In this document: piece after piece, positions 1,532 through 9,588 of the stretch
How positions within the stretch are numbered: position 1 is the first letter of the stretch
Layout of the letters: every line of letters begins with the position of its first letter
From: Candidatus Heimdallarchaeota archaeon
GTDB taxonomy: Archaea; Asgardarchaeota; Heimdallarchaeia; Heimdallarchaeales; Heimdallarchaeaceae
Assembly: GCA_019057815.1 (NCBI GenBank)
Contig: JAHLWR010000042.1
Span: forward strand, 1 to 10,932
DNA: 10,932 nucleotides
Direction of reading: 5' to 3'
Program-made: the position numbers and the translations under genes
The notes under the pieces: generated by a model
What the model was told of the DNA's origin: nothing
The model's input: only the letters and a program-made list of their open reading frames with translations
Database searches by the model: none

Positions 1532-1987
1532 TTAGTCAACTTGTCCCCACGATATAAATTGACCACCTTTGCGTTTTACTAAAACTGTACCGAACTTCCT
1601 CCATTGTTCTTCTCTATATCTGATAATGCTGAAGTCATCTTTTTTATCCCGTTTTTTCGATGACGTAAGAAGATTTCCTTTTTTCTTCTCATCCTCAAAG
1701 AAAATCTTACTCAGAAACCTACCCTCTCCAGGCTTTCTCTCAAAGTTCTTGGTTACCTCTATTATTTGTTCAATTGGTAATATGTTAAATAGTGGGAAGT
1801 GTGCTTCTGTGTATGCAGCACCGGGGCACATTTCATCTTGTTTGCAACTGGATTTACATTCCTTGCAAAAAATGAGTTGGCAACCATTACATATTTGCCA
1901 TTCTTCTAGAGCAGCTTCTTTTACTGTTTTAAGTTGATTGCAAAAAGTACATTTTAAGAAATACTGTATAACATCTTCTTCTTTCAA
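1532..1987 (-). CDS. RING/PHD-like Cys-rich zinc-finger protein (Nse1-RING-like spacing) with a basic C-terminal region
   Basis: Ligand pattern is C13-x2-C16-x16-C33-x2-C36-x4-C41-x2-C44-x3-C48-x5-C54-P-x7-H63. The TTG start overlaps the upstream TGA (TTGA, 1984-1987). It is the last gene of the operon. Confidence 0.7.
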   Translation of the reverse strand: MKEEDVIQYFLKCTFCNQLKTVKEAALEEWQICNGCQLIFCKECKSSCKQDEMCPGAAYTEAHFPLFNILPIEQIIEVTKNFERKPGEGRFLSKIFFEDEKKKGNLLTSSKKRDKKDDFSIIRYREEQWRKFGTVLVKRKGGQFISWGQVD

Positions 1988-2613
1988 AGCTTCCTAAACT
2001 CCGACGCTATTTTTTGTCTTTCTTCTACTCCAAACTCTATTTCTGTTCTATAATTGTATACCCATTTGTTTTTTATTCTTGTAATGTAACCCAATTTTGT
2101 GAGTTCTCTTAAAGTCTCATCAACAACGTACTCTTTTATCTTACCGCTTATCACAAGTCTATCTTTAACTGACTTTGATGCTATAGGAAGCTTAGTTTCT
2201 TCATATAATCCTATTATGGTTCCTAGGACCAACAATTCATTTTTTTCAAGTTCTGAAGGAGCATAATATTCAGATCGAATACAATACCAAATTTCATGAC
2301 CTGTGGGAAGAGAATATTCAACTACTTCCAAACCTAAAATATTGACAAAATCTTTATACTCACGTATAATCTCTCTTAAGCTGCCAATATCCATCCTAGT
2401 AGCTAAGAGGAGGTCATTTTCAGAACAGCCAAACACAACTTGATTGTTCTTTTTCCATTTTCGCGTTAGAATAACTGTCATTTCTTTAAAAAGTGCGCTT
2501 TTATCTTCGTCAGTTATACATGATGGTAGAGAAATAATTTTCTCCTTTTTATCTATGGTTTCAACTTCATGATTATCTTCATGATTATCAGGTTCTTCTA
2601 CCATTTTTTCCAC
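1984..2613 (-). CDS. KITE-family tandem winged-helix subunit (Nse1/Nse3-MAGE/ScpB-like)
   Basis: The size (209 aa) fits. WH-A ends at ILGLEVVEY. WH-B begins ELLVLGTIIGL and ends LRELTKLGYI...WVYNYRTEIEF, resembling the Nse1 (LHGRAILEM) and MAGE (WGPRA.AE) wing motifs as recalled. It follows the SMC and kleisin-like genes. The start is GTG 2613 or ATG 2604. Confidence 0.72.
   Translation of the reverse strand: MEKMVEEPDNHEDNHEVETIDKKEKIISLPSCITDEDKSALFKEMTVILTRKWKKNNQVVFGCSENDLLLATRMDIGSLREIIREYKDFVNILGLEVVEYSLPTGHEIWYCIRSEYYAPSELEKNELLVLGTIIGLYEETKLPIASKSVKDRLVISGKIKEYVVDETLRELTKLGYITRIKNKWVYNYRTEIEFGVEERQKIASEFRKL
2566..2589. repeat. Perfect 12-bp tandem duplication (TTCATGATTATC x2) encoding DNHE-DNHE
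   Basis: The repeat is directly visible and in frame, in the acidic N-terminal extension of the KITE protein. Confidence 0.85.
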
Positions 2614-2617
2614 TCAA

Positions 2618-3376
2618 TCATTCTTTCTTCAACGCCGATAAAAGAATAGAACTAGATGCACTTTCTTTATCTGAATTTGGATCTTCATCATAAAACTCTA
2701 GAACTTCATTTTCATGCTGTATAACAAAAATTTTCTTTTCGCTTATCAATTTTGATAATATCTCTGCGTCTAGAGGGGATAAGATTTTTTCAAGTTCTTT
2801 CTTCTTAATTTTATTATTAACAAGTTTATCTAGGATTATCTTTTCAATATTCATTATTTCGCCCTTTCCAAGGAATTTACTCTCTAGTATTGATATAAAA
2901 GGTTTATATTTTTGTAAGAAAAGCGATAATTCTTCCTTTTTCAAAGCAAGAAAAGAATCATCAACTCCATCTATGAGATCAATATTAATTACCATTGTTT
3001 TTCTTTCAGCTGTAAAAACTATAGGCTTACAAAGTTTCATAGCAAAATTGGTGAAACTTTCTACTCTTTTTTTAGGATGGAGAAGTTCTTCAAGATGAGA
3101 AAGTTCTCTTAAATCATTCATATCGATGAAATCTTCATATAAAGCAGCATCAATCAAAACTTTCTTTATTTCTTGTAAATAGAGGTAAGCTTCTGAAACT
3201 TTAATTCGATCTTGCTCTGTTTGTTTCAATAATACTACTTCTTTTCTTCTTAGGAATCTCTTATATTTTTTCTCCAATTCAAAAATCGTTTGAAAAATAA
3301 GAGATGACCAATCAGCGCCTTGCTCATAGTTGTCTAGAACAGGCATATCATCTTGGTTTCTTCCTATCTCTGTCAT
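2618..3376 (-). CDS. Putative kleisin subunit (ScpA/Nse4-like)
   Basis: At 252 aa it is ScpA-sized. The N-terminal region is helical. The C-terminal ILSKLISEKKIFVIQHENE resembles the kleisin C-terminal winged-helix pattern (L.L...g.i.l.Q). It has an ATGA overlap with the SMC gene, an AAGGTGG SD, and sits between SMC and KITE. Confidence 0.58.
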   Translation of the reverse strand: MTEIGRNQDDMPVLDNYEQGADWSSLIFQTIFELEKKYKRFLRRKEVVLLKQTEQDRIKVSEAYLYLQEIKKVLIDAALYEDFIDMNDLRELSHLEELLHPKKRVESFTNFAMKLCKPIVFTAERKTMVINIDLIDGVDDSFLALKKEELSLFLQKYKPFISILESKFLGKGEIMNIEKIILDKLVNNKIKKKELEKILSPLDAEILSKLISEKKIFVIQHENEVLEFYDEDPNSDKESASSSILLSALKKE

Positions 3377-6348
3377 AATACCACCTTTGATTCTATGAGC
3401 ACTTTGTGAGTGAATTCTTCTGTTAATGATACATCATCTAATGTAGGAGTAATTAAAATGAACTGTGGTGTCAACATTCTGTTTTCTTTCGCAATTTTAT
3501 ACGTAGATAATGCCATTGAAAAGGCAAGAGCTCTATTTTTCTTATCTAATTTTTGAGTAAATTCATCAATTGCATGCAATGGAGATTGATTTATCATATG
3601 TAATGCCAATATTATTGCTTGCGCAAGAAGAGTTTTTTCTCCCCCTGACAATTGACGATATTGTCTTTTATCCCCTTGAGTTTCAGCTTTGATTTCTAGA
3701 GCTGCATTTCTTTCATCACTGTAATTTTTGATACCTACTGAAATTGTTTCAAACACATCTTTTAGTAATAAATTAAGCATTCTATTCAGGTGAGTAACAA
3801 CATTGGTGAGCTCACTTTTCCATTCTGCTAATCTCTTATCTAAATCCGTTTTCAGGTTATTGAGGTGTTTCTGATTTTCATCTACCTCTTTTTTCATCCA
3901 TTCTACTTTTTCTTCTTGTTTTTCTATTGTTTCAGGGGCAACATCCGTTGTTATTTCAAGTAAATCTAGTTGTCCTTTTATTTGATTATATTCTGCTAAT
4001 ACTGCTTCTCTATCATTTCTAATAACTTCTGGTTTTTCTCCCACTTCTCTAGCTCTTGTTTTCCTTTCTTCATTATATTTTGTTAATTCTTGAATTTCAG
4101 AAGATAGTAGATCGATCTTTCTTAATATCTTAACACGTGTAATATTAAATTCTTCACTCTTTTTAGCTATTGTATCTAATTCAATTTCTTTTTCATTAAA
4201 CTCTTCAATAAAAATTCCAATCTTTCCCTCTAATTCGGTTACTTTACTAATAATCGTGCTGAGTTCTTCCTTAATCACTTCAATTTCTAATTCTTCATCT
4301 TGGATATGTTGTTCTAAATCGCTTTTCTTTCTCTCCAACCTTAGAAATTCATTTTCTAGATCATCACTCCCTAATTCCCAAGGTCTCAATTTCTCTTCTA
4401 ATGCTCTTCTTTCTGATTCTATTTTACTTCTCTCTCTCATCAATGCTCTATCTTCTTCCCTTATACCTTCCATTTCTGCACGTATTTGAAGTAAATTCTC
4501 TCTTACTCTTTCAAAGGATTGGTATTTTCGTGCTGAAACACCTAAACGAATGTTAGATGTTAAAGGAGGGCGAGTAAAAGCTTCTTGTGAAAGGTAGAAA
4601 CTTTTACCATCTTTTGTGAGAATATTAATTCTATTCTTAACTGCATAATCTGTTAACTCATTAGGCGAAAGAGTTGTATCAGCTAGAGCGATATTCACGA
4701 ATCTTCTAAGAAATGTTTTGAGTTGTAAAGGAGCCTTTATAAGATTCAGTACATGACCGATGATACCATTCTTTTCATCAGCTAGGTTAGGTTTTATTAT
4801 AGTGTCTTTCTCACCCTCAAGGCTATTGTTCAAAACTCTTCCAACTGAGAAATTAGGTTTTCTACCTGGAAAAACTTTATCAAAAATCTTCTTTGATTCT
4901 TCATAAGATTCATAGGAAACAGCAACAAAACTAAACAGATGTCTTCCTATAGCAGCTTTAATTACAGCAGTTAAAGGTAAATATTTCTCATCGATACTAA
5001 TAATTTCGTAAATAGGACCTAGTATTTTTTCTTTATAGGGAGATTTCTCTAAATTGTCTTTAAATGCATTAACAGCTGCTATTAATTCACTTTCATATCT
5101 ATTTAATTCACCAAATAAAGCTGATCTCTCATCTATTTTCTTGTTGATCTTCTCTTCTTCCTTTGTTTTCTCTATGAATAATTCCTTATTATGTTTCAAA
5201 TTGTTAACAATCGATCGTACATTTTTGTTAATTGAATTTAATTCATCTGTAAGTTCTATTTTTCTTTGAAAACCACTCTCTGTATTTAGATCTTTTATTT
5301 TCTTAATATTGAATCCAATACTTTCAACTTCATCCTTTAATCGATTAACATTGCTTTCTTTTTCTTTTATCTGTCCCTCCAGCAGATTCATTTGCTTTGT
5401 AAAATCGTTATTAATTGCCTTCTGATCACTTAATTCCTCTTCAAGTTTCGAGTGTTCTTCGCTAAGCTCTTTATATCTCTTCGAGTAAAATGCTCCTTTC
5501 TCCTTCAAATTATTATTTTCAGTTTGAAGTTTTTTAACTGTACCATCAAGCTCTTCTAATTGTTTTTGACTGTTATTTACGTCAAACCAAACTAACTCCC
5601 GCTCAACTTCTTGAAAACGAACAATCAGCTCTTTTTTTCTTTGTAATTTTTCATAACTATCCTGTAATTTTCTAAGTTTGAGTTGTTCTTTTTCTAGTTG
5701 TATCGATAATGGAGATATATCTTTGCTTTTCTCTTCAACTCTATTTTTTGATTTTATATAACTTTGATAGATATTTTTTATTCCAGTTGCAGCAAGTAAT
5801 GTATCAAGCTTTTTATGTGGAGAACCATCAGCAAAGCTGCTCAAACATCCTTCTTCGGTGAAATTCAACATAGCATCTTCATAGATACCTATACTTTTCA
5901 CCAAGTTCTGTACAGCTCTTTGAGTAACTTCTTTTCTTTCATTTTTTTGGTTGGAAATCCATCTTTTTGTCTTACCATTTTTATTAATTCTTATTTCCAG
6001 TCTAAATTTCTCTTTGTTTATGTAAGGACTTATTTCAGGATCTGAACTGCTTATCACTCGTTGATCAGACAATTTTGGATTATTTATGTACAGCTTGATT
6101 ATACAGTAATCATCGAAAGATCCTACTAACTCTTCATTTGTACTTAGAATTAACCTTTGAGGTTTGTGTCCTAGAGCAAGAATTAAAGCTTCTAATATCT
6201 GTGTTTTTCCACTCCCATTTGCTCCTGATATTACTGTTAGGGGGGTTTCAGAAAGTAATAACTCAGTATTCTTGTGCATTTTAAAATTATATATAATGAT
6301 TTTGTCAAAAATATACTGAGTTTCGGTTTCTTCTGAAGTAATAATCAT
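3373..6348 (-). CDS. SMC-superfamily ATPase, SMC5/6-like (archaeal SMC5/6/coalescin-related)
   Basis: Head motifs are Walker A GANGSGKT (6225-6202), signature LSGGEKT (3651-3631), Walker B/D-loop PLHAIDEFTQKLD (3582-3544) and C-terminal QFILITP (3465-3445). Two long coiled coils flank a globular hinge starting ILGPIYEII (~5025-4560). There is no CxxC zinc hook. Confidence 0.9.
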   Translation of the reverse strand: MIITSEETETQYIFDKIIIYNFKMHKNTELLLSETPLTVISGANGSGKTQILEALILALGHKPQRLILSTNEELVGSFDDYCIIKLYINNPKLSDQRVISSSDPEISPYINKEKFRLEIRINKNGKTKRWISNQKNERKEVTQRAVQNLVKSIGIYEDAMLNFTEEGCLSSFADGSPHKKLDTLLAATGIKNIYQSYIKSKNRVEEKSKDISPLSIQLEKEQLKLRKLQDSYEKLQRKKELIVRFQEVERELVWFDVNNSQKQLEELDGTVKKLQTENNNLKEKGAFYSKRYKELSEEHSKLEEELSDQKAINNDFTKQMNLLEGQIKEKESNVNRLKDEVESIGFNIKKIKDLNTESGFQRKIELTDELNSINKNVRSIVNNLKHNKELFIEKTKEEEKINKKIDERSALFGELNRYESELIAAVNAFKDNLEKSPYKEKILGPIYEIISIDEKYLPLTAVIKAAIGRHLFSFVAVSYESYEESKKIFDKVFPGRKPNFSVGRVLNNSLEGEKDTIIKPNLADEKNGIIGHVLNLIKAPLQLKTFLRRFVNIALADTTLSPNELTDYAVKNRINILTKDGKSFYLSQEAFTRPPLTSNIRLGVSARKYQSFERVRENLLQIRAEMEGIREEDRALMRERSKIESERRALEEKLRPWELGSDDLENEFLRLERKKSDLEQHIQDEELEIEVIKEELSTIISKVTELEGKIGIFIEEFNEKEIELDTIAKKSEEFNITRVKILRKIDLLSSEIQELTKYNEERKTRAREVGEKPEVIRNDREAVLAEYNQIKGQLDLLEITTDVAPETIEKQEEKVEWMKKEVDENQKHLNNLKTDLDKRLAEWKSELTNVVTHLNRMLNLLLKDVFETISVGIKNYSDERNAALEIKAETQGDKRQYRQLSGGEKTLLAQAIILALHMINQSPLHAIDEFTQKLDKKNRALAFSMALSTYKIAKENRMLTPQFILITPTLDDVSLTEEFTHKVLIESKVVL

Positions 6349-6433: not shown

Positions 6434-9400
6434 TTACTTTTTCCTTTTGATTCTAGCTACAATAGCAGTCACAAAAACTGCACCTAGAGCCCAAAAGACC
6501 ATATCTAAACTTCCAGCACGAGTGTGAGATTCACTTGTTGCGACTTCAGCACCAGCAGAAGTTCCTGTTGCGGTAGAGGCGCCATAATCTTCCCAGTCAT
6601 TTGTATCTTGGGATACAGCATTCATTGTAATTAACAATTGTTCTCCACTGGAAACTTCTATTGCAACACCGCCACCACCGAGTTCGTTCTCGAAGCGACT
6701 GTCGTAGATTATTTGAAGTCCAGGTAAGTAGCATCCATCATTGGTTAAGAATTTCCATCTCATGGTTAGAGTGACTGACTCTCCAGGAGCTAGTGTTATA
6801 CCATCAAAGATTATAAGACCCATACCATAGTGGTCGGGAATTACTGATGCGCTACCTAATGTTGAATCCTCGAATGCATATTCAAGTTCAGCTAGGTTGT
6901 AGTATTGGTAAGCTGTAATGGAAGTTGTCTCATCACCAACATTAGTTATTGTAATAACTAATTCTAGCTCAACTGGGAGATATGGGTGTACATCTGGATC
7001 AATAATGAAGCTAGGAACTACTTCAATATCTAAAACTGGTTGTGGGAAAGCAGGTTCCATATTTTCTGTTGATGGAAGCAGTATAGCCCAATCCATGTTA
7101 GATAGAACCAAATGGTGAGCTTCAGCTGCACCTTCAAATTGCTCAGTATTTCCAAACCAATCCTCAACATCAAGTGGTAGTTGACCATAGTCACTTATGA
7201 AATCAGCAACTCCGTAAACTGAGTGGATACCTAAGAATGAATTAGCATCTACAATTATGAAACCACTATAAGTTTCTCCTGCAGGAATTGTACCTATATC
7301 GTCTACTGCAAATTCTTCTGGATGAGTTATTTGCCAGTTATTACCCATTTGTCCATGGAATAGACGTAATTTGACTTCTCGAGCATCACAATCACCAGTG
7401 TTTTCAATAGTGTAGTCAATTCTAACTGGGTCTCCCACTATGTAACCTGTTTGATCCATAGCTACATTAACATTCAGAACTGCTTCATCATCAGCAATCT
7501 GGAAGTTAAGACCGTTGCTGAAACCGAAGTATTCGAAGTTTTGTGGATCTTCATATCTGTATCTGGCTCCTGGGGAAATCCAGACATCATTCCATGCATC
7601 ATAAAAGCTGAGTAAGCGCCCATGTGCTAGTTGACCTGCAGCATCAGCGAAACCAAGAGCAGTTTGCATGATTTCCTCGAAAGTCCAGTCATCTGTGTCT
7701 AGTTTAACAGCTGGAATTGTACCTCCTACTTCGAAGGGATAAACAATTCTCATAAAACCTATACTCCATGCTTGAGATGGAATGTTGGTTAAATTCCAGT
7801 TAAGAGTAACTGTTTCAGCTGGGGCTAAACTTCCAATACTAGCCTCCAAGAAATATTCTGTACGTTCTGTTTCAAAACGACCTACAGTTTTTTCAACTAT
7901 AGCAAAATCTCCTACAACAAGGTCAAATACAGATTGTTCTTGGTACAACAAGTCAAATAGTTGTCTTGCGGCAAGTGAGACAGAAACTTCTAATGTATCT
8001 AGATATTTATCAATACCCTTTTGAACATCAGCAATACTTGTATAATCTGCTAGATTCACGAGTTCAAGAGCTTCCGTTACTCTTTCGATTAGGATATTAC
8101 TCAATCCATCAACGCAGTGAATGCTCACCGATATATCAACTTCTCCAAGTAGAGTAGTCAAGAACCAATATTCAACATTTTCTGTTTTTAGTACTTGATT
8201 AGTATTTGTCTCATCTATATCGACCCATGTACCATCAGTATCATTAACATACCAACCATCAAGGACTAAAACGATTTGATCTACATAAATATCATCAACG
8301 TCAGCAAATGCAGTATGATCGCTGTAAGTAACATTGAATGTACCATAAATTTCCATATAGATACCCTCATCAACCGTTACATCATCGCGTAATCGATAGA
8401 TATCAGGTTTTTCGTCTAATAAATCTTGGAAAGCTGGTCCTAGAGGATAGCTAATTAAGATATCTTCTGCTGTTTCTTCACCTGTGTTTGTTACTTCATA
8501 AAGCATTTCGAGTGTTCCTTCTTCTCGCAAGAGTGTCTGATCATATCCCATGTTTACATGAACTCTTGGATTTGAAGCTAATGCAGAATGATCTATGTCA
8601 AATATGACCTCGTAATTTGTTGGTGATTCAACAAATAGTCCTCTCTGAATCATCCAATCCATTTTACCCGTTATTTGTGGAGCAAAATTATCTGGCATTG
8701 GACTTATTGAGGATGGATTAACTGTATATGGGAATCTGAACTTTACTTCAGAAAATTTAAGATATCCAGCATCTGAGCATGGAGCTACATAAACTCCAAA
8801 GACGTTATTTGTGGACAGTGTGTAAGGTTCTGTTCCTGTTATTGCGTCATCATCAACATAAGTTACACCTCTCATAGGGAATGTATAACCTTCAAAGTAA
8901 CCTGCACCAATATATACTGCTTTAATGGGGGCACCACTTACTACTGTTGGATCAAGTAATTCAGCAAAACCTGTTGTGAATGCGGACCCTATTTCTGTTA
9001 CAAGATCTACAATGTTTGTTTCACTGGCTCCTCCGGTGAAAGCATAAACATAATTACCAGAAGCAGACAGCATTGCTCTTGCCCAATGAAGTGTAACCCC
9101 ATAGAATGTTGAGAAATCTTCTGCTATTGATAATGCTTCAGTGAGACTTCCATCAGCTCCTAATGTTGCCTTGATTTCTAAAACTAATGTAGCGTTTTCG
9201 GGAGCTAAGAAAGGTCTTCTTAATAGATAGGTATCAAACCCATCTTGGAACGACACAACGTAAACCCAACTAGCAACATTTGCTAATAACGTCCCTGTGT
9301 CAATATCTTGGTCAGGTCCACCAACTATGTTGATTTGTACCAACGCAGCAGAACCTATACCTGCTGTGACCGTTAACTCTTCAGCAATTATTGCGGGAGT

Positions 9401-9520
9401 TGCTGTAAGACTATTGTATTGTTCTGTTACAATAGAAGCTTGCAAAAGACTTCCGCTTAATGTTAGGAGGATAACGGTTAAGCCTAAAACTGTTGAACCC
9501 ATAAGGATTTTCTTTTTCAT
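6434..9520 (-). CDS. Large acidic cell-surface/S-layer-like protein with signal peptide, CARDB/DUF11-type Ig-like domains and a C-terminal membrane anchor (1028 aa)
   Basis: The start is re-assigned from TTG 9538 to ATG 9520, because GGAGGT (9536-9531) is an SD and MKKKILMGSTVLGLTVILLTLSGSLLQA is a typical signal peptide. There are three NxG motifs (VTNTG, IENTG, ITNVG) and three [LI].[PA][AG]E[TS]-type motifs (LAPAET, IPAGET, LAPGES). An S/T/G-rich linker precedes the TM helix VFWALGAVFVTAIVA and the RIKRKK tail. Confidence 0.78.
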   Translation of the reverse strand: MKKKILMGSTVLGLTVILLTLSGSLLQASIVTEQYNSLTATPAIIAEELTVTAGIGSAALVQINIVGGPDQDIDTGTLLANVASWVYVVSFQDGFDTYLLRRPFLAPENATLVLEIKATLGADGSLTEALSIAEDFSTFYGVTLHWARAMLSASGNYVYAFTGGASETNIVDLVTEIGSAFTTGFAELLDPTVVSGAPIKAVYIGAGYFEGYTFPMRGVTYVDDDAITGTEPYTLSTNNVFGVYVAPCSDAGYLKFSEVKFRFPYTVNPSSISPMPDNFAPQITGKMDWMIQRGLFVESPTNYEVIFDIDHSALASNPRVHVNMGYDQTLLREEGTLEMLYEVTNTGEETAEDILISYPLGPAFQDLLDEKPDIYRLRDDVTVDEGIYMEIYGTFNVTYSDHTAFADVDDIYVDQIVLVLDGWYVNDTDGTWVDIDETNTNQVLKTENVEYWFLTTLLGEVDISVSIHCVDGLSNILIERVTEALELVNLADYTSIADVQKGIDKYLDTLEVSVSLAARQLFDLLYQEQSVFDLVVGDFAIVEKTVGRFETERTEYFLEASIGSLAPAETVTLNWNLTNIPSQAWSIGFMRIVYPFEVGGTIPAVKLDTDDWTFEEIMQTALGFADAAGQLAHGRLLSFYDAWNDVWISPGARYRYEDPQNFEYFGFSNGLNFQIADDEAVLNVNVAMDQTGYIVGDPVRIDYTIENTGDCDAREVKLRLFHGQMGNNWQITHPEEFAVDDIGTIPAGETYSGFIIVDANSFLGIHSVYGVADFISDYGQLPLDVEDWFGNTEQFEGAAEAHHLVLSNMDWAILLPSTENMEPAFPQPVLDIEVVPSFIIDPDVHPYLPVELELVITITNVGDETTSITAYQYYNLAELEYAFEDSTLGSASVIPDHYGMGLIIFDGITLAPGESVTLTMRWKFLTNDGCYLPGLQIIYDSRFENELGGGGVAIEVSSGEQLLITMNAVSQDTNDWEDYGASTATGTSAGAEVATSESHTRAGSLDMVFWALGAVFVTAIVARIKRKK

Positions 9521-9530
9521 TTTATATAAG

Positions 9531-9588
9531 ACCTCCAAAATTTTGGCTAATATCTACTATCCCAAACACACATTATAAAGATTATTTT
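9531..9588 (-). promoter_or_regulatory. BRE/TATA (AAAATAATC-TTTATAA, TATA at 9579-9573) and SD GGAGGT (9536-9531) for the surface protein gene
   Basis: An A-rich element is followed by TTTATAA ~55 nt upstream of ATG 9520, and the SD is a perfect match. Confidence 0.6.

Follow-up and report, generated by a model that had tools for sequence, protein, structure and literature searches.

A RING-like zinc protein encoded directly after the KITE gene in SMC5/6-type operons of Asgard archaea

The 10,932-nucleotide (nt) stretch analyzed here (the window; contig JAHLWR010000042.1 of the Candidatus Heimdallarchaeota archaeon assembly GCA_019057815.1) carries an operon that ends with genes for a KITE protein and for a small, cysteine-rich zinc protein. 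Our favored reading, to which we give a probability of about 75%, is that the two are intact genes, third and fourth in an Asgard operon for a structural maintenance of chromosomes (SMC) ATPase, a kleisin and a KITE, of the type related to SMC5/6, and that the zinc protein is an accessory subunit of the complex. An initial annotation of the window had called the pair a 'split Nse1', after the eukaryotic SMC5/6 subunit in which tandem winged helices and a RING lie on one polypeptide. The phrase is fair as a description of the locus; as a statement about ancestry it is unproven.

Gene content and predicted proteins

All four genes are on the minus strand. The first (3373..6348) encodes a 991-amino-acid (aa) SMC ATPase that matches Pfam SMC_N (E 8e-28) and, weakly, SMC_hinge, and that scores far under the cut-off of the canonical prokaryotic SMC models. 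The second (2618..3376) encodes a 252-aa candidate kleisin, and its start overlaps the SMC stop codon as ATGA. A Pfam search with this protein returned no match. Its presumed role as kleisin follows from its position and from the archaeal operons described by van Hooff, Raas, Tromer & Eme (bioRxiv 10.1101/2024.01.07.573240), and an iterated hidden Markov model detected it in 40 related loci, each time flanked by the SMC and KITE genes. The third gene (1984..2613) encodes a 209-aa protein with an acidic, disordered N-terminus (residues 1-26) followed by tandem winged helices. The fourth and last (1532..1987) encodes the 151-aa zinc protein. The open reading frames (ORFs) of the third and fourth genes each have 27-32 homologues at 50-60% identity and of like length (about 200 aa and about 150 aa, respectively), and we therefore regard both as real genes.

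The 209-aa protein matched no Pfam or NCBIfam family at threshold. The AlphaFold2 (AF2) model (predicted local distance difference test score, pLDDT, 80) has two winged helices behind the disordered acidic segment, and Foldseek searches with it returned archaeal ScpB (6juv, E 3e-4), NSE1 of the MAGE-G1/NSE1 complex (5hvq_C, E 7e-4), MukE and JetB. On re-alignment (VIA), the best two-domain matches were 7dg2_A (Z 11.4 over 163 aa, root-mean-square deviation, rmsd, 4.2) and 5hvq_C (Z 10.9 over 162 aa), ahead of yeast Smc5/6 chains and ScpB (Z 9.2-10.2; ScpB 3w6j_C, Z 9.7). The match covers residues 9-187 of 5hvq_C and about residues 2-187 of the best chains from Nse1-Nse3 complexes. Judging from residue numbering, 7dg2_A and 5hvq_C should both be Nse1 chains, with the match ending where the Nse1 RING begins. 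On the basis of the predicted fold and of the neighboring SMC and kleisin genes, the protein is thus identified as a KITE, in agreement with the initial annotation. ScpB and MukE match almost as well, which points to membership of the KITE group and not to orthology with Nse1; the preference for Nse1 over ScpB lies within about 1-1.5 Z units and is not decisive. Weak sub-threshold Pfam matches in the KITE family are to MAGE (5 of 20 members) and MksE (3 of 20).

In the zinc protein, a putative RING-like domain with two zinc sites in cross-brace arrangement (1799..1951; ligands C13, C16, C33, C36, C41, C44, C54 and H63) is followed by a short helix, a disordered lysine-rich linker and a conserved C-terminal motif (residues about 118-151, at 1535..1636; ...REEQWRKFGTVLVKRKxGxFISWGQ). 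The AF2 model has a pLDDT of about 80 for residues 10-80 and 62 overall. Residues 83-118 are disordered, and the C-terminal motif is predicted, at low confidence, as a helix and a beta-hairpin. This C-terminal block is the most conserved part of the protein, above the finger. It hardly varies in the close family (A1), and one of its residues, W129, is the same throughout the broad family. A complex prediction for KITE, kleisin and zinc protein gave a score of 0.01, which carries no weight either way.

The junction of the KITE and zinc-protein genes

The KITE ORF ends with ...YRTEIEF, 15 further residues (GVEERQKIASEFRKL) and TGA, and positions 1989..1984 of the minus strand read CTTTGA. The TTG start of the zinc gene shares three bases with this stop-containing end, which gives a 4-nt TTGA overlap (1984..1987), and its frame lies at -1 relative to that of the KITE gene. 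The first CxxC of the zinc protein (C13/C16) follows after 12 residues. The initial annotation described this geometry correctly; it added that a single-base insertion or -1 shift at 1984-1989 would yield one continuous polypeptide, and asked for a check for an indel. The junction was examined at the level of assembled contigs. Contigs from four runs of four different studies bridge the junction with 0 gaps and no indel, and in an independent genome of the same genus (locus L022) a 70-nt stretch spanning the junction is identical to that of the window.

Further loci were collected from whole-genome searches of the phylum (46), after a search with the KITE protein (4), and from the window's genome and one Hodarchaeales record. 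In the window's own family, Heimdallarchaeaceae (f1), the 4-nt stop/start overlap is present in 26 of 26 loci (23 TTGA, 2 GTGA and 1 ATGA), so that the zinc gene begins with a non-ATG codon in 25 of them. The junctions of this family include CTGTGA and CTATGA, neither of which is slippery. Other Asgard families have ATGA overlaps, 11-nt overlaps (ATGAAACTTGA), direct abutment, or spacers; these spacers measure 0, 20, 23, 27, 38 or 44 nt and place the two genes in varying frames. Those of 20-44 nt carry a Shine-Dalgarno-like GGAGG/AGGAG motif and an ATG. As the relative frame differs from one family to another, a single recoding mechanism could not fuse the KITE to the zinc protein. Also consistent with separate translation, the N-termini of homologues align with the TTG-initiated N-terminus of the zinc protein.

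About 60 loci, 92 proteins of the family and 1.84 billion representative proteins yielded no fused KITE-RING form; where the initial annotation had left open whether orthologues are fused or split, they are split in every locus and protein found. A KITE homologue search that admitted proteins of up to 366 aa returned only proteins of 199-208 aa. Longer relatives of the zinc protein were likewise absent, which is weak evidence alone but is backed by an exhaustive profile search and by the lengths of the open frames in genomes (zinc protein, 146-203 aa; KITE, 180-264 aa). The profile search, against the 1.84 billion representatives, gave 43 proteins and no fusion of about 360 aa; these matches are stand-alone proteins of 143-192 aa, besides fragments of 69-122 aa and two long repeat proteins. 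Both of the latter match the zinc-family profile in part and repeatedly: P0096 (1016 aa) contains 8 copies of the finger region, and P0088 (2155 aa) repeats 20 residues of the C-terminal motif 10 times.

Two readings of the junction were therefore rejected: a single gene broken by an assembly indel, in view of the gapless contigs of four studies and the overlap conserved in 26 of 26 loci, and programmed -1 frameshifting, as the junction geometry varies between families. The KITE and zinc genes are two intact genes in ordinary stop/start coupling, and their being one base out of frame has no special significance. The same 4-nt overlap (ATGA, GTGA or TTGA) is found in coupled prokaryotic cistrons, and the SMC/kleisin junction of this operon is likewise ATGA. 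Compared with ordinary coupled cistrons, the only unusual point is the rare TTG start, which is kept in 23 of the 26 Heimdallarchaeaceae loci. Through the overlap, synthesis of the zinc protein is coupled to the end of KITE translation, and the non-ATG start would tie the output of the zinc protein to that of the KITE. The near-universal non-ATG start in this family suggests that the zinc protein may be made mainly by re-initiation after the KITE.

Distribution and linkage in Asgard archaea

The zinc gene was identified in 58 of 301 sampled Asgard genomes, in each case as a stand-alone ORF of the length range given above. By family, it is present in 25 of 28 Heimdallarchaeaceae genomes, in 10 of 11 genomes of family f6, in 16 of 19 of family f17 and in several small families. 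It was not found in the two largest sampled families (0 of 76 and 0 of 68). The KITE clade to which the window's protein belongs has an almost equal distribution, with 57 of the 58 genomes that encode the zinc protein also encoding this KITE. Two genomes have a strong KITE match without a zinc-protein hit; the zinc gene nevertheless lies directly after the KITE gene in both. The more distant KITE paralogues of families f20 and f23 are not accompanied by a neighboring zinc gene.

The order SMC-kleisin-KITE-zinc protein was found in every locus with flanking sequence, across at least eight Asgard families, and the SMC gene lies upstream of the other three in all related loci with sufficient flank. 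That the RING-like protein is a fourth subunit of an Asgard SMC5/6-type operon is well supported. What the data show is the structure, conservation and linkage of the genes and the topology of the ligands; physical membership of the complex, a ligase (E3) role and anchoring are properties that we infer. Pfam ScpB had no match in the window's own genome, which is 95% complete, and the 991-aa frame is the only SMC-length frame among its SMC_N hits. Thus, the operon may encode the main or only SMC complex of this organism.

Directly downstream of the zinc gene in family f17 (L034:10240-12523) are an HDAC-family gene on the opposite strand and a gene for a GNAT acetyltransferase with an SCP2 domain. 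These could represent a chromatin-modification neighborhood or a coincidence. Also identified was a shorter zinc paralogue (119-131 aa), the finger of which has aspartate at ligand 5 and a weak match to FYVE. In family f17 its gene lies some 1.5 kb upstream of that for the SMC and on the other strand (L032:15407-15766, L033:5326-5712, L034:3078-3464, L039:2895-3281 and L040:15360-15755), and in family f6 it lies about 10 kb away (L036:18105-18482).

Zinc ligands and predicted fold

The ligand spacing in the window's protein is C-x2-C-x16-C-x2-C-x4-C-x2-C-x9-C-x8-H. Conservation was assessed in the broad zinc-protein family (92 unique sequences). Cysteine occupies position 13 in 81 of 83 sequences, positions 33 and 36 in 85 of 85, position 44 in 84 of 86 and position 54 in 86 of 88. 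Position 16 is cysteine in 65, histidine in 10 and aspartate in 6 (one of these three in 81 of 83), and position 41 (ligand 5) is cysteine in 78 of 86, aspartate in 6 and never histidine. The initial annotation had offered H63 or C48 as the last ligand. H63 stands, with histidine in 78 of 88 sequences, and C48 was rejected, as this position is cysteine in only 2 of 92.

Co-variation among these positions is informative about topology. All nine members without His63 have Cys59, and these nine are all the members with Cys59; a cysteine wherever His63 is missing implies that a fourth ligand is required alongside positions 33, 36 and 54. Two divergent members have jointly lost positions 13, 16, 41 and 44 and retain 33, 36, 54 and 59. 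This pattern argues for cross-brace ligation (ligands 1 and 2 with 5 and 6; 3 and 4 with 7 and 8) over sequential ligation. On this evolutionary evidence, site 1 would be formed by C13, C16, C41 and C44 and site 2 by C33, C36, C54 and H63.

The initial annotation had proposed that the domain is RING-like, and the matches of the predicted structure to solved folds, although weak, point the same way. The nearest fold is the RING of RNF4 (2xeu_A; Z 5.0, rmsd 2.4 over 58 of 64 aa), followed by the CTLH RING (8pjn_i, Z 4.9), the Prp19 U-box (2bay_A, Z 4.6), the Mms21 SP-RING (Z 4.5) and ZZ domains. Fold lists consist almost wholly of RING, U-box, SP-RING, ZZ, B-box or IBR domains. The ESM Atlas gave RING-like, B-box and IBR clusters for the domain, and a feature search of the Atlas with the zinc protein gave only unnamed clusters under 0.9. 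Sub-threshold sequence matches in the PDB are to the RINGs of RNF4, NOT4, TRIM (TRIM21) and TRAF6, and those in Pfam to RING, FYVE, B-box and IBR families. Among curated RING profiles, the closest are zf-RING_UBOX, which one member matches at E 1.9e-4, and zf-C3HC4, at E 0.001; for the protein encoded in the window, zf-RING_6 gives E 0.039 (14.3 bits, cut-off 35). Given how consistently the lists point to RING-type domains, and given the co-variation of the ligands, the predicted domain is best read as a RING-like cross-brace fold.

Linked conjugation genes and proposed role

In two loci, genes related to ubiquitin-like conjugation follow the zinc gene on the same strand. Locus L036 (family f6) encodes a Prok-JAB protein (E 5e-9) and a ThiF-family E1 (E 1e-38), and locus L042 (family f10) encodes the same two functions (Prok-JAB, E 2e-8; ThiF E1, E 2e-36). 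Locus L036 additionally encodes a 259-aa protein that weakly matches UQ_con (E 0.004), and it has an ORF of 103 aa whose last residue is glycine. Used as a single query, the 259-aa E2-like protein had no match in the window's genome. JAB and E1 genes placed directly after the operon, on the same strand, in two Asgard families of different classes are hard to attribute to chance. On the basis of this gene context, an E3 function for the zinc protein is plausible, at odds that we would put slightly short of even.

The window's genome encodes ubiquitin, E1 and E2s elsewhere. A cluster (G000:C38:218742-221610; loci L057 and L058) encodes a ubiquitin of 78 aa, a ThiF E1 of 348 aa and a fusion of UEV/UQ_con, Vps23core and Vps28 of 489 aa, and it resembles the known Asgard arrangement of ubiquitin and ESCRT-I genes.

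The zinc protein would most likely be a dedicated accessory subunit of the SMC complex, attached to the complex or to DNA by its C-terminal motif. The RING-like domain could act as an E3-type adaptor for a ubiquitin-like pathway, as a structural brace, or as both. The RING of NSE1 provides a precedent for such a brace, as it has a structural role (PMC11335289, PMC8750328).

Several observations weigh against parts of this interpretation. Matches of the zinc domain to solved folds are individually weak and under the confidence range of the tool (the best Foldseek E value is 0.45), and the zinc protein has no significant sequence match in Pfam or the PDB. We read the residues by which RINGs bind E2 as not clearly conserved in the zinc family: the position before ligand 2 is phenylalanine in the close family and glycine in distant members, and the family alignment has no conserved tryptophan after ligand 6. 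Conjugation genes flank the operon neither in the window's family nor in family f17. In the Hodarchaeales genome LC_3 (GCA_001940645.1), the homologue HeimC3_51610 (L063:8001-8501) follows two genes for ABC-transporter ATPases, and SMC, kleisin and KITE genes are not adjacent to it.

Some of these observations would be expected if the domain were a different kind of cross-brace finger (FYVE, ZZ, B-box or PHD-like) and bound DNA, a peptide tail or the SMC arm, with no part in ubiquitin-like conjugation and with the JAB and E1 genes of some lineages nearby by coincidence. We consider this unlikely, though not so unlikely as to be set aside. Sub-threshold Pfam matches to an ANCHR-like B-box (7 of 31 members), FYVE (5 of 31) and IBR (5 of 31) are as frequent as those to RING families, and ZZ domains occur among the fold matches. 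The variable E2-contact positions, the lack of adjoining conjugation genes in most lineages that have the operon, the window's included, and the documented structural role of the NSE1 RING also fit a domain of this kind. Against it, catalytic RING or U-box domains make up most of the top fold matches, and the placement of JAB and E1 genes directly downstream on the same strand recurs in families from different classes.

Comparison with eukaryotic SMC5/6 and published archaeal operons

Operons for an SMC related to SMC5/6, a kleisin and a KITE have been described from TACK and Asgard archaea (van Hooff et al., 10.1101/2024.01.07.573240; Yoshinaga & Inagaki, PMC8665677). The kites are Nse1/3-like and were placed as sisters of Nse1 and Nse3, and the Nse1 RING, absent from archaeal kites, was considered a eukaryotic innovation (van Hooff et al., 10.1101/2024.01.07.573240). 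The operon in the window has the same three core genes in the same order, also in Asgard genomes, but differs in its fourth gene, as three subunits were described previously. The main text and supplements of van Hooff et al. (10.1101/2024.01.07.573240) are silent on a fourth gene for a RING or zinc protein, and we found no description of one in full texts of the literature, coverage of which was incomplete.

The likeness to Nse1 is one of architecture. In both cases a tandem-winged-helix KITE precedes, in the same N- to C-terminal order, a cross-brace domain with two zincs, and both occur together with an SMC5/6-type SMC and a kleisin. The ligands of human NSE1 are C191, C194, C204, C207, H212, C215, C228 and C231, i.e., C-x2-C-x9-C-x2-C-x4-H-x2-C-x12-C-x2-C (PMC11335289). 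As the initial annotation pointed out, the spacing of ligands 3-6 (C-x2-C-x4-X-x2-C) is equal in the archaeal protein, with cysteine in place of histidine; however, only that stretch agrees, and it is not specific to Nse1. In S. pombe Nse1, the third and fourth ligands (Cys3 and Cys4) are at residues 197 and 199, so that the central spacing is not diagnostic. Central spacing of the type C-x2-C-x4-C-x2-C is also found in FYVE and PHD fingers and thus does not point to Nse1.

Differences from Nse1 are substantial. Nse1 is one polypeptide, whereas two are encoded here in every locus and protein found. Ligand 5, histidine in Nse1, is cysteine in most archaeal members, so that the C4HC3 pattern is not reproduced. 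Ligands 7 and 8 are C-x2-C (CPxC) in Nse1, whereas here they are C-x8-H or C-x4-C. The archaeal protein has in addition its lysine-rich linker and conserved C-terminal motif, for which we know of no counterpart in Nse1. Eukaryotes have an Nse1/Nse3 pair, in contrast to the single archaeal KITE gene, the product of which is presumably a homodimer. No Nse1 chain was returned by PDB profile searches with the zinc domain (E up to 10) or among the top 50 matches of three fold searches, a result that is compatible with remote homology.

Nse2 (Mms21), an SP-RING SUMO ligase bound to the Smc5 arm, provides a second comparison, as it is a separate RING-type subunit of SMC5/6. The zinc domain matches SP-RINGs (3htk_C, Z 4.5; 7qcd_C, Z 4.2), and the two divergent family members noted above keep only zinc site 2, as SP-RINGs do. 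These matches are weak and have poor rmsd. In Nse2, moreover, the RING is C-terminal to a helical domain that binds the arm, whereas the archaeal domain lies at the N-terminus and, in most members, has both zinc sites.

The initial annotation had suggested that the locus may represent a pre-fusion state. On this reading, an Asgard KITE and its RING-like neighbor are direct ancestors of the winged helices and variant RING of Nse1, with duplication of the KITE and gene fusion during eukaryogenesis giving rise to Nse1 (with RING) and Nse3 (without). We regard this as improbable. Gene order does correspond to domain order in Nse1, the best full-length KITE matches are to chains from Nse1 complexes and end at the WHB/RING boundary (chain residues about 181-187), the central ligand spacing equals that of human NSE1, and the pairing is ancient and widespread among Asgard archaea. 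The sister relationship of these kites to Nse1/Nse3 (van Hooff et al., 10.1101/2024.01.07.573240) is also in its favor. However, no signal specific to Nse1 was found: its RING is missing from zinc-domain match lists that include many unrelated RINGs, and only the SP-RING of Nse2 appears there, weakly. The identity of ligand 5 and the position of ligand 8 (x8 for histidine, x4 for cysteine, without CPxC) depart from the Nse1 pattern, the shared spacing is common to FYVE and PHD fingers, and the C-terminal motif is not known to have an Nse1 equivalent. No fused intermediate occurs in any data set searched, and the copy in LC_3 is unlinked from SMC genes. The pre-fusion proposal thus has the standing of a hypothesis.

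In the literature on SMC evolution, the Nse1 RING and the link between SMC5/6 and ligase activity are treated as eukaryotic inventions (van Hooff et al., 10.1101/2024.01.07.573240). A RING-like gene that is syntenic with an Nse1/3-like kite in at least eight Asgard families, in some with JAB and E1 genes, suggests an older association, irrespective of descent of Nse1. The strongest version of this idea, in which the partnership of SMC5/6 and a RING ligase predates eukaryotes, the gene pair is the forerunner of Nse1 by fusion and the RING-like subunit already served as E3 for a linked JAB-E1-E2-like system, seems to us doubtful in the same measure as direct ancestry. A functional analogy is reasonable, in which a RING-type module, possibly structural, would sit on the KITE/kleisin part of an SMC5/6-type complex. 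The question becomes testable with these genes, as expression and reconstitution could be attempted with four small archaeal proteins or with the six to eight that the extended operon encodes.

A defense system or a single gene as unlikely alternatives

The four genes could alternatively form not a housekeeping complex of the chromosome but an SMC-based defense against foreign DNA, comparable to Wadjet or to restriction by eukaryotic Smc5/6, in which the RING-like protein, E1 and JAB would serve as a signaling arm. E1 and JAB modules are common in bacterial defense, those linked to the operon match the E1-E2 and JAB models of PADLOC, and the distribution within the phylum (58 of 301 genomes) is patchy. 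We nevertheless consider this very unlikely. In PADLOC the kleisin, the KITE and the zinc protein had no match, and the SMC matched generic ATPase models alone (JetC at most 31 bits), and no JetD-type nuclease partner was seen in the window. Within the Heimdallarchaeaceae the operon is near-universal (25 of 28) and syntenic, and it may encode the main SMC complex, since the 95%-complete genome gave no ScpB match and no other SMC-length frame among its SMC_N hits.

The chance that the KITE and zinc frames are one gene, whether interrupted by an assembly indel or read as a KITE-RING fusion by a -1 frameshift at CTTTGA, is negligible: such a shift would connect both frames, but the gapless contigs, the overlap shared by all Heimdallarchaeaceae loci including those with non-slippery junctions, the spacers of other families with their own Shine-Dalgarno motif and ATG, and the aligned N-termini of homologues all argue against it.

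Genes flanking the operon

One gene flanks the operon on each side. Upstream on the minus strand (6434-9538) is a gene for a protein of 1034 aa; its N-terminal segment is signal-like, a membrane anchor lies at the C-terminus, and CARDB is matched weakly. Downstream, and convergent with the operon on the plus strand (93-1481), is a gene for a 462-aa, secreted-looking protein of the Exo_endo_phos family.

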